In this document: piece by piece, positions 11,852 through 17,253 of the stretch
Numbering within the stretch: the first letter of the stretch is position 1
Layout of the letters: each line of letters starts with the position of its first letter
Source: an uncultured Chloroflexia bacterium
GTDB lineage: Bacteria > Chloroflexota > Limnocylindria > Limnocylindrales > CSP1-4
Length of the DNA stretch: 64,000 nt
Reading direction: 5' to 3'
NCBI GenBank assembly: GCA_963850555.1
Contig: CAWKLT010000004.1
Span: 114,081 to 178,080 of the forward strand
Translations under genes and position numbers: made by a program
Notes under the pieces: model-generated
What the model saw: only the letters and a program-made list of their open reading frames with translations
Database searches by the model: none
What the model was told of the DNA's origin: nothing

Positions 11852-11884
11852 TCGCGCGGCATCAACGCCCTGACAAACGTGAAA

Positions 11885-11907
11885 GGCCGCCGGCGGAGCC
11901 GGCGGCC
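11885..11907. terminator. Bidirectional intrinsic terminator
   Basis: GGCCGCCGG-CGGAG-CCGGCGGCC (9-bp GC stem). On the minus strand it is followed by UUUCACGUUUGU. On the plus strand it lies 34 nt after the 11851 stop. Confidence 0.7.
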
Positions 11908-11973
11908 TGATCTGTCTGGTGTACGCCTAGAGCGTAGTGATGAGTTCCCAGCGGTGACCGGACTCGATAGTCA

Positions 11974-12066
11974 TCACCAATCCCACCGCATACCTGCGCC
12001 CACCGTGAGGGCCAGTGACGCGAGGACCGTGAGTGCCCACGAGAGGCGGGCCAGAGTGCTTTTCAC
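11974..12066 (-). CDS. 30-codon hydrophobic micro-ORF downstream of the c-di-GMP riboswitch
   Basis: GTG at 12066 is preceded by GAAGGGGA (SD) with a 6-nt spacer. Peptide: VKSTLARLSWALTVLASLALTVGAGMRWDW (one predicted TM helix). It is followed by the terminator at 11907-11885. Confidence 0.45.
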   Translation of the reverse strand: MKSTLARLSWALTVLASLALTVGAGMRWDW

Positions 12067-12097
12067 GATCGATCCCCTTCGAGCGAAGAGTGGATCA

Positions 12098-12182
12098 CGC
12101 CGGATCGGCGGCCGGGCGGTCTCTTGCGAGATCCCTGGCTTTGCGTCCCCGCCTCGCGACGGGTTTGCCCTGAGCGATCGTG
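12098..12182 (-). promoter_or_regulatory. c-di-GMP-I (GEMM-I) riboswitch aptamer
   Basis: Minus-strand RNA: CGAUCGCUCAGGGCAAACC-CGUC[GCGA]GGCG-GGGACGCAAAGCC-AGGGAUCUC[GCAA]GAGACCGCCC-GGCCGCCGAUCC. It reproduces the conserved CAGGGCAAACC / GNRA hairpin / GGGACGCAAAGCC / second hairpin / CCGAU layout of the Vibrio Vc2 class-I aptamer. A downstream hairpin can occlude the SD of the micro-ORF. Confidence 0.85.
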
Positions 12183-12331
12183 GTGTGCAGGACGAAAGTC
12201 CGTTGTGGTCGCACTGTCGCTCATCCATCCCCGAGTGCCGATACCCCAGTAGTACCAGTACCCCGCGGCCGTTGGGGGGAGTTGTCGGCCCGCACCGGGC
12301 GGCCTGGGAGCCCCGAACCGCGCCGGGCCGT

Positions 12332-12895
12332 TCAGGCGCCGACGGGCGGCGCTGCTGCGACCGTCGACGGTCGATCCCACGCGCGCATGGCGGTGACGAT
12401 CACGATGCCGACGCCGACACCGATCAGCACGTCGCCGATGCTGAAGACATTGGAGAACGGGACCCACGTCGGGAGCGCGAAGATGTCGGTCAGTGGCGCC
12501 AGCACGGGATCGGGGACGATCGTGCTGTTGGAGTAGGCCGTCGGATGCGCCGCACCCAACGCGGTCAGCGCCGCGGGATCCGCCGGCATGTAGCCACCGT
12601 TCGCGACGATCGCGACGAGGTTGCTGATCGCGCCGAGGGCCACGATCGGCATCCCCGTGATGGCGCGATTGGCCAGGACGGCCGCGATGACGGCCGCGGT
12701 CGAGGCCACATAGACCGGCGGCCCGAACCCGCCGATCCGAGCACTGACCGGCTCCGAGAACAGGACGACCTGGGTGAGGAGCCCGGCCACGATGACCCAC
12801 GACCAGCGCAGCTGGAGCGCGGCCAGGCCGGACAGACGCCCGCCGGTGACGAAACCGACGACGAGTCCGATCAGGACGGCATAGAGGATGAACAA
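12332..12895 (-). CDS. DUF5317-family integral membrane protein
   Basis: 187-aa multi-TM ORF (MFILYAVLIGLVVGFVTGGRLSGLAALQLRWSW...VANGGYMP...). It begins 20 nt after the GGDEF-EAL gene. This family is typically linked to c-di-GMP enzymes. Confidence 0.75.
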   Translation of the reverse strand: MFILYAVLIGLVVGFVTGGRLSGLAALQLRWSWVIVAGLLTQVVLFSEPVSARIGGFGPPVYVASTAAVIAAVLANRAITGMPIVALGAISNLVAIVANGGYMPADPAALTALGAAHPTAYSNSTIVPDPVLAPLTDIFALPTWVPFSNVFSIGDVLIGVGVGIVIVTAMRAWDRPSTVAAAPPVGA

Positions 12896-12914: not shown

Positions 12915-15464
12915 TCAGCTGGCCAGGTGGTCGATGGTCAGGGCCGACGACGCGGCTCGGATCCCCGACGCGGGGCGGCGCGGCTCCCGCAGCGGCCGTT
13001 GGGCCATCAGCATCTCGGTCATGGCATCCGCTTCCTGCGGCCTCGAGAAGAGGTAGCCCTGGCCGTATTCGCAGCCGAGCTCGTGGAGCCGCCGATACTG
13101 CCCCGGTTCCTCGATGCCTTCGGCGATGATGCTCAGCCCGAGCGTCCGGCCGAGGGCCACGATCGCGCCGGCGAATGCCCACTCCTCTTCGCTCTCCGCG
13201 GGCCCGATGAACTCACGCGCGATCTTGAGGATGTCGACCCGGAAGCGGCGCAGGTAGCCGAGCGATGAGTATCCGGTGCCGAAGTCGTCGATCGCGATCC
13301 GGACACCAAGGTCGCGGATGGCCTCGAGGCGCGAGATCGTCGTCGTCGTGTCGTGGAACATCACGGTCTCGGTCATCTCGAGGACCAGCTGCCACGGCGT
13401 CAGCCCGCTCTCTTCGAGGATGGACTTGAGATCGCTGACGAAGGTGGGTTCCTGGAGCTGCTGGGCGGACAGGTTCACCGACATCGTCAGGGGCGGGTCG
13501 GTCGGCCCGAGCCTGGACCATGCCGCGGCCTGACGGCACGCTTCCGACAGGACCCAACGCCCGAGCGGCAGGATCATCCCGTTCTCCTCGGCGAGGTGGA
13601 CGAACTCGCCGGGCCCGATCAGGCCACGGACCGGATGGCGCCAGCGGACGAGGGCCTCCATGCCGGTGACTTCCGCGTTCGAAAGCGTCACGATCGGCTG
13701 GTAGTAGACCGCGAGCTCCCCCTGGCCGAGGCTCCGGGAGAGCTCGGCGCTGAGCGCGTGCCGTTCGACGATGGCGGCGTGCATCGTGGGCTCGAAGACG
13801 GACACGCGGTTCTTGCCGGATGCCTTGGCCGTGTACATCGCGACGTCGGCGTTGCGCAGGAGCTCGTCGGCCCGCTCCGTCCCCAGACGCGCGGCGGCGA
13901 TGCCGATGCTCGCCCCGATGGTCGTGTCGTGCCCGTCGATGGAGAACGCCACGCGCATCGCCTCGATGATCCGGTGGGCGACGGCCTCCGATTCGGACAG
14001 GCCCGGGTCGTCTTCGAGGAGGACCGCGAACTCGTCGCCGCCCAGGCGCGCGGCGACGTCCTCGGTGCGCAGCACGGTCCGCAGGCGCGCCGCCACGTCG
14101 AACAGCAGTCGGTCGCCGGCGGCGTGCCCAAGCGTGTCGTTGACGACCTTGAAGTCGTCGAGGTCCATGAACAGCACGACCGGCATCTTGTCGGTGGGAC
14201 GACTGATCCGGTCCACGACCTTCTCGAGGAACAGGGTCCGGTTCGGGAGGCCGGTCAACGGGTCGTGGTAGGCCTGATGACGGAGCTGCTCCTTGAGCCG
14301 CGACAGCTCGGCCAGGGACTGCTCGAGATGGCCGTTCTCCAGCGCGACCGCGGCCTGGTTGGCCAGGGTCTCGAGCAACCGGAGGTCGTCCTCGCTGAAC
14401 ATCGTGCCCTCGGTCAGGCGGTTGCTGATGATCAGCGAGCCGATCATCTCCGACTCGCCGCGGAGCGCACTCACCATGTGCTGCGACACACGCCCATCCG
14501 GGTCGCGGGTCTCCTCGAAGAACGGCGCCGTCGAGTTGGCGAGACGCAGGTGGATCGGGTCCTCGACGTAGTCCCGGTCCGGGACCATCACGTCGGCCTC
14601 GCGTTCGTGCCAGGAGCGGGTCCGCAGGCCGGCCTCCCCGATGGTTCGCGGGTACAGGACGACCTCCGCCAGCTCGGCGCGGAACATCGTGCGAGCGTGG
14701 CTCAGCAGCGACACCAGGGTCGAGTCGATCTCGGGGGAGTGCTGCAGGATCCGCGACGACTGGTAGAGGAGTTCCAGGCGCTCGTGCTTCTCGCGCTCCG
14801 AGACGTAGGCCTGATAGGCCAGGAAGACCATCGCGACCGGCAGGATCAGCAACCAGAGCATGGCCGGGCTCAACCAAAGCGCGGCGACGGCGAGGAGCGC
14901 GAGGCTCGTGTTCGCCAATGCCACCATCAGACCGAACTGGATCATCTCGGGAAGCTTCCGGAACTGCGGGGCGCCGCCCGAGAGCGTGATGACCGTCGCG
15001 ATCGTGATGGAGCTGATGATCGTCGACGCCGATGTCGCGGCGAACGCCGCGAGCCACTCGCGCAAGCCGGGCATCCCGTCACGGACGACGAGGGCCGACA
15101 CGATGCTGTAGGAGACCACCGCGATCAATCCGAAGTTCGCGAGGTTGAATGCCACCTTGATGGGGCGTTGTCCGGAGGCGAACAGCATCGCGGCGGCCGA
15201 GCCGGTCAGGACGGCCAGGACGTAGTCGGGGGGCGAGAGGAAGAACAGGCCGACGACGGCCGGGAACTCGCTCAGCGAGAACGAGTGGGTCTCGCGCCGG
15301 AAGTGGACCTCGACGACCTTCAGCTCGGCAGCCGCGAAGGCGATGGCGAGGAGGGGCCACGGGATCTGGATCGGGACTTGAGGCGCGGGGAGGCCGTGCA
15401 GCCGTGCGACGTAGATCGCGACCGCGACGAGGATGAGGGTCACGGTCAGACCCCAGACGCGCAC
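12915..15464 (-). CDS. Membrane-anchored GAF-GGDEF-EAL c-di-GMP turnover protein
   Basis: N-terminal ~8 TM helices, a GAF-like region, the GGDEF domain (RLGGDEFAVLL) and the EAL domain (MEALVRWRHP...DDFGTGYSSL). The ORF is open to 15704, but the first 80 codons are Arg-rich and look non-coding, so GTG 15464 is preferred. Confidence 0.88.
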   Translation of the reverse strand: MRVWGLTVTLILVAVAIYVARLHGLPAPQVPIQIPWPLLAIAFAAAELKVVEVHFRRETHSFSLSEFPAVVGLFFLSPPDYVLAVLTGSAAAMLFASGQRPIKVAFNLANFGLIAVVSYSIVSALVVRDGMPGLREWLAAFAATSASTIISSITIATVITLSGGAPQFRKLPEMIQFGLMVALANTSLALLAVAALWLSPAMLWLLILPVAMVFLAYQAYVSEREKHERLELLYQSSRILQHSPEIDSTLVSLLSHARTMFRAELAEVVLYPRTIGEAGLRTRSWHEREADVMVPDRDYVEDPIHLRLANSTAPFFEETRDPDGRVSQHMVSALRGESEMIGSLIISNRLTEGTMFSEDDLRLLETLANQAAVALENGHLEQSLAELSRLKEQLRHQAYHDPLTGLPNRTLFLEKVVDRISRPTDKMPVVLFMDLDDFKVVNDTLGHAAGDRLLFDVAARLRTVLRTEDVAARLGGDEFAVLLEDDPGLSESEAVAHRIIEAMRVAFSIDGHDTTIGASIGIAAARLGTERADELLRNADVAMYTAKASGKNRVSVFEPTMHAAIVERHALSAELSRSLGQGELAVYYQPIVTLSNAEVTGMEALVRWRHPVRGLIGPGEFVHLAEENGMILPLGRWVLSEACRQAAAWSRLGPTDPPLTMSVNLSAQQLQEPTFVSDLKSILEESGLTPWQLVLEMTETVMFHDTTTTISRLEAIRDLGVRIAIDDFGTGYSSLGYLRRFRVDILKIAREFIGPAESEEEWAFAGAIVALGRTLGLSIIAEGIEEPGQYRRLHELGCEYGQGYLFSRPQEADAMTEMLMAQRPLREPRRPASGIRAASSALTIDHLAS

Positions 15465-15801
15465 GACGGCCGGGATCGGGCTCCCGTCCGACTGCAGCCG
15501 TCGTGTGGCCGGTCGGTGGCGCAGGCGCTGCGCGAGTCGCGTCCGCTGGTACGTGGCCCGGCCTCGGTCCGTCAGTCCCCGGATCCGAGTCGACAAAAGA
15601 TGCCGCCCCCTCTTGGTGTGGTTGCGGGAGGGATGGTGATGACTAGGACGGTTGTACCCCTTGGACGGCCCTTGTGCAGCACACCAGGGGTACCGCCCAG
15701 GCATAGGACTATCGGTGCCTCGCAGGCTGATTCGCGGACGCCTGAGCCGTCCGCTGGTAGTCTGCAGCCGTCCCGTCCGAACCCCGTGGAGCTCTCACAG
15801 C

Positions 15802-17253
15802 ATGGCCGCCACCTCGCCCCGACCGCGCACCATCGTCGACAAGATCTGGACCGACCACGTGGTCAGCCAGGATCCGGGCGCCCCGGCCGTGCTCGCCGTG
15901 GACCTCCACCTCGTCCACGAGGTCACCTCGCCGCAGGCCTTCACGGGGCTCCGCCAGCGCGGCCTCACGGTCCGCCGGCCGTCGCAGACCGTCGCGACCG
16001 CGGACCACTCGATCCCGACCACGCCGCGGGACCTCCCCATGCTCGACATGGCGGCCGCCGCCCAGATCTCGAGGCTCGAAGACAACTGCCGGGAGTTCGG
16101 GGTGCCGCTCCACGGGATCGGCTCGCCATCACAGGGGATCGTCCACGTGATCGGCCCGCAGATGGGGCTGACCCAGCCCGGGATGACCATCGTCTGCGGC
16201 GACTCGCATACGAGCACGCACGGCGCGTTCGGAGCGCTGGCGTTCGGGATCGGGACGAGCGAGGTCGAGATGGTGCTCGCCACCCAGACCCTCCTCCAGC
16301 GCGACCCGAAGACGTACGAGGTCCGGATCGACGGCCGCCTGGCGCCCGGCGTCAGCAGCAAGGACATCATCCTCGCGCTGATCGCCCGGATCGGCGTCGG
16401 CGGCGGGACGGGCCATGTGTTCGAGTACCGCGGCGAGGCCATCCGCGCGCTGACCATGGAACAGCGGATGACCATCTGCAACATGAGCATCGAGGGCGGC
16501 GCACGAGCCGGGCTCATCGCCCCGGACGACACGACCTACGAGTACGTGCACGGCCGCGAATACGCGCCGCAGGGTGCGGCATGGGATGCCGCGGTCGAGC
16601 GCTGGCGGCGGCTGCCCACGGACGACGGGGCGACGTACGACAAGTCGATCACGATCGACGCGAACGCCCTCGAGCCGATGGTCACCTACGGGACCAACCC
16701 CGGGATGGGCATCCCGATCACGTCGCGCGTCCCCTCGCCGGCCGACGAGCCGGATCCGGCCGCGAAGCGAGCCCTCGAACGCGCGCTCGAATACATGGAC
16801 CTGCAGCCCGGACAGGCGATCATCGGCCAGAAGGTCGACGTGGTCTTCGTCGGTTCGTGCACGAACGGCCGGATCAGCGACCTGCGTCTGGCCGCCGCCG
16901 CGCTCAAGGACCGCCACGTGGCGGACGGCGTCCGGCTCATGGTCACCCCCGGCAGTGACGAGGTGAAGCGCGAGGCCGAGGCCGAAGGGCTGTCCGAGAT
17001 CTTCAAGGCCGCGGGCGCCGACTGGCGCGAATCCGGCTGCTCGATGTGCATCGCCATGAACGGCGACCAGCTGGCGCCCGGCCAGTACGCGGTCAGCACG
17101 AGCAACCGCAACTTCGAGGGTCGCCAGGGCAAGGGCGGCCGGACGTTCCTGGCCTCTCCCCTGACCGCGGCGGCCTCCGCCATCGCGGGCGTCGTGACCG
17201 ATCCGCGGACGCTGCCCGGGATCGAGACGCTGGCCGCGGTCGGCGGTCGCTGA
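15802..17253 (+). CDS. leuC: 3-isopropylmalate dehydratase large subunit
   Basis: [21 protein letters not shown]...[22 protein letters not shown]...[10 protein letters not shown]. The ORF is open from 15652, but ATG 15802 fits the family N-terminus. Confidence 0.93.

Follow-up and report, generated by a model that had tools for sequence, protein, structure and literature searches.

A cassette of ~380 nucleotides (nt) on the minus strand of a 64-kb stretch of DNA from a Chloroflexota bacterium of the class Limnocylindria (contig CAWKLT010000004.1; the whole stretch is hereafter the window) can be read, with a probability of roughly 0.8, as an autonomous micro-operon in which a class-I riboswitch for cyclic dimeric guanosine monophosphate (the c-di-GMP-I, or GEMM-I, class) with a translational expression platform drives a membrane micropeptide that would most likely modulate a GGDEF-EAL module. 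The order of its parts would be a promoter-like block, a 5' hairpin, the aptamer, the expression platform, a first open reading frame (ORF1), a vestigial second one (ORF2) and a terminator. It lies 150 nt past the stop codon of a gene for a DUF5317 protein, which itself follows a GAF-GGDEF-EAL gene. A sequence-only reading of this DNA, whose quoted minus-strand RNA agrees letter by letter with the window, had proposed a self-contained cassette of a class-I aptamer, a membrane micropeptide and a terminator, and that proposal is supported by the covariance score, the covariation and the coding signature given below. The locus is of interest mainly for a new family of micropeptides and for how tightly that family is linked to c-di-GMP enzymes.

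With the DUF5317 protein as anchor and one genome scanned per species, 79 loci were assembled, nearly all from Chloroflexota assemblies labeled Limnocylindria or Limnocylindrales, the Limnocylindria lineage being represented here by metagenome assemblies only. A motif search followed by a purpose-built covariance model (R1) located 46 aptamers with their cassettes in 40 of these loci, and the R1 search of the 79 loci yielded no further divergent aptamer copies. With 46 recurrences in 40 other species, the arrangement is beyond chance. The aptamer stands 150–250 nt downstream of the DUF5317 gene in 36 loci and immediately upstream of the GGDEF-EAL gene in the remaining four (L008, L023, L053 and L075; about positions 1710–2060), and two or three tandem cassettes, ~550 nt apart, occur in five loci. 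The tandem duplication or triplication involves the cassette as a whole, i.e., promoter block, aptamer, ORF1, ORF2 and terminator (L028, L037, L051, L058 and L062).

The identity of the aptamer is established on several grounds. An Rfam cmscan of the whole 64 kb returned a single gathering-level match, at 12178-12103 of the minus strand, to RF03167 (c-di-GMP-I-GGC, clan CL00126), at 61.9 bits (gathering score 59; E-value 3e-12); a second, lower-scoring overlapping match from the same clan passed its own threshold and was hidden by clan competition. In a scan of 14 orthologous loci with 20 aptamers, RF03167 was the best model for 16, each of which hides one threshold-passing clan match, and orthologous aptamers reach 46–50 bits with RF01051 (c-di-GMP-I, gathering score 35) wherever RF03167 falls below 59. 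Since the orthologues behave in this way, the hidden match in the window, whose own score is not displayed, is most probably RF01051 at 35 bits or more. The covariance score proposed as a check on the aptamer is therefore above threshold, as read directly for RF03167 and by way of the orthologues for RF01051.

The fold itself is borne out by comparison. An alignment of 37 aptamer sequences was examined over 21 base pairs, comprising P1 (12179-12175 paired with 12107-12103 in the window) and the two hairpins, against 500 shuffles and controls with slid partners. The structure is 93.8% paired, with 10 pairs altered on both sides; none of the 500 shuffles matched the observed pairing, and the slid-partner controls pair at 34–50%. 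Covariation had been suggested as a check for both hairpins, and it is seen in these as well as in P1. The first hairpin carries a GNRA loop, GCGA in the window and GCGA, GUGA or GCAA in 37/37 aligned aptamers.

In the numbering of the Vibrio cholerae Vc2 aptamer, G20, A47 and C92 are the ligand-contacting nucleotides; their equivalents in the window are G12169, A12142 and C12108, and none of the 37 orthologous aptamers departs from them in the corresponding columns (14 G, 41 A and 96 C of the alignment). At position 47 an adenine intercalates between the ligand's two guanines, and the GGC variant is defined by a G in its place. The RF03167 consensus GACGCGAAG has this G opposite A12142; in the window (GACGCAAAG) and in every one of the 37 orthologues of the alignment, an A stands there instead. 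The model also reads AAAGGC where the window reads CAGGGC, i.e., it has an A at the position of G12170. Helix lengths and the P2 internal loops are otherwise very similar between RF03167 and the window. Because the G20/A47/C92 equivalents are invariant, the binding pocket is, by its sequence, that of canonical class I, with the compact GC-rich scaffold alone common to the seed of the GGC model. The original assignment to GEMM-I thus holds for the pocket, whereas the best Rfam model is that of the GGC variant, and the c-di-GMP-I class gains a new member in this aptamer. With RF01051 and Vc2 it shares the three-helix architecture, a first hairpin capped by a GNRA loop, the conserved blocks GGCAAACC and GACGCAAAGCC, the G20/A47/C92 identities and a place in a 5' untranslated region (UTR) with an expression platform; it differs from them in the compact, high-GC scaffold that scores higher with RF03167, in a switching helix that extends into the first ORF codons, and in a cargo that is a 30-residue peptide. 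As separate observations on the aptamer, C replaces G at the G19 equivalent in L008, L023, L053 and L075 (ACGGC or CCGGC), and an ATG-initiated ORF of 84 amino acids (aa) spanning it (12228-11974) was rejected as a chance in-frame extension.

The cargo is a gene, to judge by its coding signature. The 30-codon hydrophobic frame previously read from GTG 12066 to TGA 11974 translates as proposed, into a peptide with a single transmembrane (TM) helix. ORF1 is present in 46/46 cassettes, gap-free over 28 codons and starting with GTG in 43, with the family consensus VKANLARFTWALxLLAxMALTLGAGMRW. Its pooled ratio of nonsynonymous to synonymous change (pN/pS) is 0.44 in its own frame, whereas the two alternative frames give 1.0 and 2.5, and third codon positions are the most variable; e.g., Gly23-Ala24-Gly25 are invariant residues that use three to four synonymous codons each. 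The conservation proposed as a check, at synonymous versus nonsynonymous sites, is thus that of a coding sequence. A profile search of 5.8 billion predicted proteins (E-value cutoff 0.01), with an alignment headed by a 40-aa family member, recovered 792 database members of 29–34 aa, all labeled "hypothetical" and devoid of a Pfam domain; Pfam and NCBIfam searches of the peptides gave no model matches. With the 30-aa peptide as query, phmmer returned no more than 16 matches from 1.84 billion representatives, all of them weak and mostly over-extended ORF calls. Within the window, ORF1 is the sole strong match to the peptide family (E-value 3.7e-14). The common layout is a basic N-terminus, a hydrophobic core, an invariant A-G and then x-R-W, and the peptides constitute, at the level of sequence pattern (K..L.R, TM helix, AG-x-R-W), a large unannotated family of 29–34 aa.

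Several features suggest that the cassette has its own, putative promoter. When the 170 nt 5' of all aptamers were aligned, the same elements emerged in the same order: a small hairpin whose loop is GGUGC, then a C-rich box, GTAC-N4-GGGTCAT, a 22–23-nt spacer and the hexamer nAnnnT, followed after ~7 nt by a covarying hairpin that abuts the aptamer. The promoter-like columns are conserved upstream of all 46 cassettes, the second-position A and sixth-position T of the hexamer being invariant, and the -10 element stands at a set distance of 42–47 nt from the aptamer. A relaxed composite regular expression for the promoter matches 26/46 cassettes, against 0.035 expected from shuffles. The position near -42 is that of a class II activator site, and by this analogy the conserved 15-mer would be centered near -42, where such an activator would bind. 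The covarying hairpin is present in most cassettes, with compensatory variants such as GAGGACG/CGTCCTC, GAAGGC/GCCTTC and GGAGGCG/CGCCTCC, and also in genes that lack the riboswitch; it probably sits at the transcript's 5' end or close to it. As an observation in its own right, within the upstream block (12213-12300 of the minus strand in the window and its equivalents in L001-L100) the box takes the form ACUCCCCC(G/A)A or CACUGACCCGA.

The sequence-only reading had found no convincing promoter here and had suggested that the sensor might be cotranscribed with the enzyme. In that case, the riboswitch would be a 3'-UTR or read-through element without a promoter of its own, transcribed from the GGDEF-EAL/DUF5317 operon, with sensor and enzyme on one mRNA. 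The cassette does always lie on the same strand, 150–250 nt behind DUF5317 or directly behind GGDEF-EAL; a sigma-70 consensus scan finds no promoter, and no strong terminator was identified from the DUF5317 stop to the aptamer. Against this, GTAC-N4-GGGTCAT, a 22-nt spacer and nAnnnT stand at fixed spacing 5' of every copy, including the second and third tandem ones; the same block precedes riboswitch-less paralogues of the ORF2 type, whether these lie downstream of DUF5317 or in the unrelated setting of DinB_2/Pro_dh; and in four species the cassette is upstream of the enzyme gene. Because the block accompanies tandem copies and riboswitch-less paralogues alike, an autonomous transcription unit is favored and cotranscription appears unlikely, even if it is the rival that survives best. 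The other end of the unit had been placed at a terminator stem at 11907-11885, and such a stem does exist: folding of the 3' segment of 121 nt yields -53.1 kcal/mol (z = -3.3), and in 45/46 cassettes ORF2 is followed by a comparable GC-rich hairpin with a folding energy of -12 kcal/mol or below. A generic terminator scan missed the stem in the window because its U-tract is interrupted.

Between aptamer and ORF1, a terminator scan of the window sequence found no U-rich terminator, and control is therefore likely to be exerted at the level of translation. The GAUCC..CUUC/GAAGGGGAUC hairpin that had been drawn over the Shine-Dalgarno (SD) sequence is recovered in the minimum free energy (MFE) fold. 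The extended 5' strand of P1, CACGAUCG (12182-12175), is in turn perfectly complementary to CGAUCGUG (12071-12064), which includes the start codon, and the resulting helix of 8 bp forms in the MFE fold of the window computed without constraints. A further long-range helix joins CUCUGG (12056-12051, ORF1 codons 4–6) to UCAGGG of the aptamer (12173-12168), a segment made up of the last bases of the P1 5' strand and the junction that holds G19 and G20. The covariation of this alternative helix is established: 18 of the 22 distinct variants hold its register, with compensatory changes, as CCAGG/CCUGG in most cassettes, UCAGGG/CUCUGG in the window, CCAGGG/CCCUGG in L003 and L004, and CUCAGG/CCUGAG in L048 and L060, where the same change alters the amino acid from Ala to Arg. 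Codons 1–9 of ORF1 (GUGAAGGCGAACCUGGCGCGCUUCAC) are nearly invariant even at synonymous sites, whereas later codons vary freely, and the same nine codons are kept in the L098-L100 clade although the TM part of its ORF1 is lost. The hairpin over the SD sequence (CCUUC/GAAGG) and one at the start codon (GUGAAG/CUUCAC) recur in many cassettes.

The helix between the 5' side of the aptamer and ORF1 codons 4–6 probably performs the switching, to judge from its covariation. Binding of c-di-GMP would lock P1 and the pocket; in the unliganded RNA the same nucleotides would pair with the start-codon region (CACGAUCG/CGAUCGUG) and with codons 4–6 (UCAGGG/CUCUGG). Ligand-stabilized P1 would compete with both alternative helices, and occupancy would thereby shift the accessibility of the translation-initiation region, with ORF2, where intact, translationally coupled to ORF1. 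For the window we lean slightly toward an ON switch, because formation of P1 would free the start codon.

Behind ORF1, most cassettes encode a second TM peptide of 32–34 aa that ends in EAG(H/Q)RW, with the consensus M+xx(F/L)+xQxFRxLLxLxxLASSALVLEAG(H/Q)RW+. The gap between the two frames is -10 to +8 nt, and the overlap is often GUGAUGA or UGAUG. The two are paralogous (hhalign profile-profile probability 95.9%), and both consist of K, four residues, R, a TM helix and then A-G-x-R-W. In the clade of the window, the TM part of ORF2 is lost and [DE][AS]GHRW is retained. The micro-ORF had been described as the only cargo of the riboswitch: it is the sole intact peptide in the window, but the family cassette is bicistronic and a remnant of ORF2 is kept here. 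Beside this, the Arg codon of the ORF2 G-H-R-W motif (11951-11946 of the minus strand in the window) is CGC in 41/42 cassettes while the neighboring Gly and His codons vary freely; this codon is under constraint at the nucleotide level, and the motif outlives the decay of the rest of ORF2. An RNA-level explanation of the motif, by pairing of the ORF1 MRW codons with the ORF2 HRW codons, was rejected, as it fails where ORF1 ends in IKW or LKW.

These paralogues bear on whether ORF1 serves chiefly as a leader ORF or an RNA element, conserved on account of the expression platform, with ORF2 or the RNA itself as the true product. Its codons 1–9 are indeed constrained at the nucleotide level, and in L098-L100 ORF1 is reduced to just those codons, its TM helix lost, and runs through GUGAUGA into an intact ORF2. 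Yet the window shows the reverse, an intact ORF1 with ORF2 as a 15-codon stub, so that either paralogue can decay, and codons 10–28 show selection at the amino-acid level with free synonymous change, e.g., at Gly23-Ala24-Gly25. A mere leader role is thus quite improbable. For the L098-L100 clade itself (L098:3700-4110, also L099 and L100), it may be recorded that ORF1 consists of the first nine codons (VNANLARFT) followed by non-hydrophobic sequence, that GCACACC and GUCGC replace GCAAACC and GACGC in the aptamer core, and that the cassette lies directly behind GGDEF-EAL without DUF5317.

Certain observations weigh against the reading of the cassette as a translational switch tied to a c-di-GMP enzyme. 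Four cassettes (L008, L023, L053 and L075) lack the long-range helix, both of its sides being changed there. In partition-function calculations, the initiation region (-13 to +6) has a mean unpaired probability of 0.35 with the aptamer enforced and 0.40 when free; in the window, either state retains the SD hairpin, with no clear change in the accessibility of the SD sequence or start codon. Moreover, some family members stand apart from any GGDEF-EAL or DUF5317 gene and have no aptamer, e.g., in the DinB_2/Pro_dh context, and the link of the peptides to the GGDEF-EAL enzyme is for this reason frequent but not obligatory.

Table 1. Coordinates of the cassette elements and the genes behind which they lie (positions in the window)
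Feature	Position	Strand	Basis
GAF-GGDEF-EAL enzyme, polytopic membrane protein	12915..15704	-	Pfam GAF, GGDEF, EAL
DUF5317 membrane protein	12332..12895	-	Pfam PF17248, 95 bits
Promoter-like block: GTACTACTGGGGTAT (12255-12241), 22-nt spacer, -10-like hexamer GACAGT (12218-12213)	12213..12255	-	Conserved columns
Small 5' hairpin, GGAC-UUUC-GUCC	12188..12202	-	Conserved position, compensatory changes
Aptamer of the c-di-GMP-I clan	12103..12179	-	RF03167 61.9 bits; R1 94.3 bits; 37-sequence alignment
Expression platform	12040..12102	-	MFE folds, covariation, conservation of codons 1–9
Anti-SD/SD hairpin	12095-12071	-	MFE fold
SD sequence GAAGGGGA	12080-12073	-	
ORF1, 30-aa single-TM micropeptide VKSTLARLSWALTVLASLALTVGAGMRWDW, GTG start	11974..12066	-	Translation confirmed
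Vestigial ORF2 MTIESGHRWELITTL, 15 aa, ATG overlapping the ORF1 stop as UGAUGA	11927..11974	-	Comparison with other cassettes
Terminator-like hairpin GGCCGCCGGC-UCC-GCCGGCGGCC, then UUUCACGUUUGU	11873..11907	-	Fold z-score

The two upstream genes are as originally identified, with Pfam confirming both. The GAF-GGDEF-EAL protein has intact GGDEF, EAL and DDFGTG motifs and ~6–7 hydrophobic segments (aa 75–300) ahead of the GAF domain, and DUF5317 is likewise polytopic. Across the loci the synteny is family-wide, with GAF-GGDEF-EAL as the constant neighbor of the cassettes, usually accompanied by DUF5317; the cassette lies behind GGDEF-EAL and DUF5317, behind GGDEF-EAL alone, or ahead of GGDEF-EAL. 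The longest ORF of the enzyme (from ATG 15704) opens with a stretch of ~75 residues, highly basic and non-hydrophobic, that precedes the first TM segment (15460-15704, minus strand), and the true start is probably further downstream. Divergent from it runs an aconitase gene (15652-17253, plus strand), and the aconitase/GGDEF-EAL/DUF5317/cassette synteny is also found on metagenome contigs L080-L085. A literature search returned no publication on DUF5317.

From synteny only, the most likely role of the micropeptides is to act in the membrane on the GGDEF-EAL module, with c-di-GMP feeding back on its own enzyme; the peptide would be a membrane-embedded accessory or modulator that closes a feedback loop. 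Small membrane proteins that modulate sensors or transporters are familiar from MgrB-PhoQ, AcrZ-AcrB and KdpF-KdpABC. Like MgrB, AcrZ and KdpF, the present peptides fall among single-TM proteins of 30–50 aa whose genes adjoin that of a polytopic membrane partner or are regulated together with it; their sequences are unrelated, and the analogy is functional only. A bolder version, which we hold to be speculative, is that c-di-GMP gates the synthesis of one or two AG-x-R-W micropeptides that bind, or are processed by, the adjacent GAF-GGDEF-EAL enzyme and DUF5317, thereby resetting c-di-GMP synthesis or hydrolysis; in its boldest form, DUF5317 would clip an exported x-R-W signal.

Toxins of the TisB, Fst and Ibs types have a similar size and a single hydrophobic helix, and the peptides, with 29–34 aa and one such helix, resemble them; together with the tandem amplification of the cassette in some genomes, this raises the notion of membrane-perturbing agents, akin to type-I toxins or holins, that c-di-GMP would dose for the control of dormancy or lysis. 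No antisense RNA feature was noticed, the strict AG-x-R-W and the stable synteny with a signaling enzyme in 40 species are untypical of toxin loci, and two coupled paralogues favor a structural or regulatory partner role, which makes a toxin very improbable. Weakest of all is the proposal that the peptides are signal-peptide-like precursors cut after the invariant A-G by DUF5317, in the role of an intramembrane aspartyl peptidase of LspA type, to free an extracellular or periplasmic x-R-W signal: the peptide layout (basic N-terminus, hydrophobic core, A-G, x-R-W), the persistence of the C-terminal motif where the TM part of ORF2 is lost, two invariant Asp of DUF5317 set 18 positions apart in LTD and GD motifs, a weak NCBIfam LspA match (E-value 0.02, far below cutoff) and one JGI record that labels a homologue "lipoprotein signal peptidase" are set against a DUF5317 profile search of PDB sequences without a match, an hhalign comparison with Escherichia coli LspA that aligns 18 columns at the second Asp motif at 5.8% probability, a Foldseek search with the AF2 model (predicted local distance difference test score 75; low confidence at residues 110–150) that finds no LspA-like structure, and cassettes that adjoin GGDEF-EAL without any DUF5317. 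Homology of DUF5317 to LspA is accordingly unsupported by the PDB profile search, hhalign and Foldseek. As a side observation on this protein, its invariant motifs are NGGYMP, LTD and S-x-GD, with an Asp spacing reminiscent of the LspA catalytic dyad.

A parallel might be struck with Clostridioides difficile, in which five class-I riboswitches (Cdi1_6 and Cdi1_8 to Cdi1_11) each control a 58-aa membrane-associated protein of the CD1980.2 family by premature transcription termination, as OFF switches linked to sporulation, with no homologues of the family reported outside C. difficile (bioRxiv 10.64898/2026.06.10.731418). The premise of the sequence-only reading, that GEMM-I riboswitches usually control full-length proteins rather than a bare peptide, has thus been overtaken by this preprint of June 2026; beyond C. 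difficile, our literature search found no other precedent for a c-di-GMP riboswitch with a tiny peptide. In both systems a small, membrane-associated and previously unannotated protein is the sole cargo of a class-I c-di-GMP riboswitch, and in both it belongs to a multicopy family with some paralogues that lack the riboswitch. The present case differs in its host, a member of the Chloroflexota, in peptides of 29–34 aa that form a coupled paralogue pair, in a syntenic GGDEF-EAL enzyme, and in control that is probably translational, with the switch helix inside the coding region; the two families are set apart here by description.

The cassette represents a second, phylogenetically remote case in which a tiny membrane peptide is the whole regulon of a c-di-GMP riboswitch, and it suggests that micropeptides may be a recurrent, under-annotated output of c-di-GMP signaling. 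It defines a peptide family of at least 792 database members for which neither Pfam nor NCBIfam has a model, and it offers a first functional context for DUF5317. It also forms a compact, testable system, comprising an aptamer of 77 nt, a switch helix that covaries within the coding region and a product of 30 aa, which could serve for studying second-messenger regulation of membrane enzymes in Limnocylindria. Were the boldest form of the peptide's role to prove true, it would couple a second messenger to cell–cell communication in an uncultured phylum of soil and freshwater.

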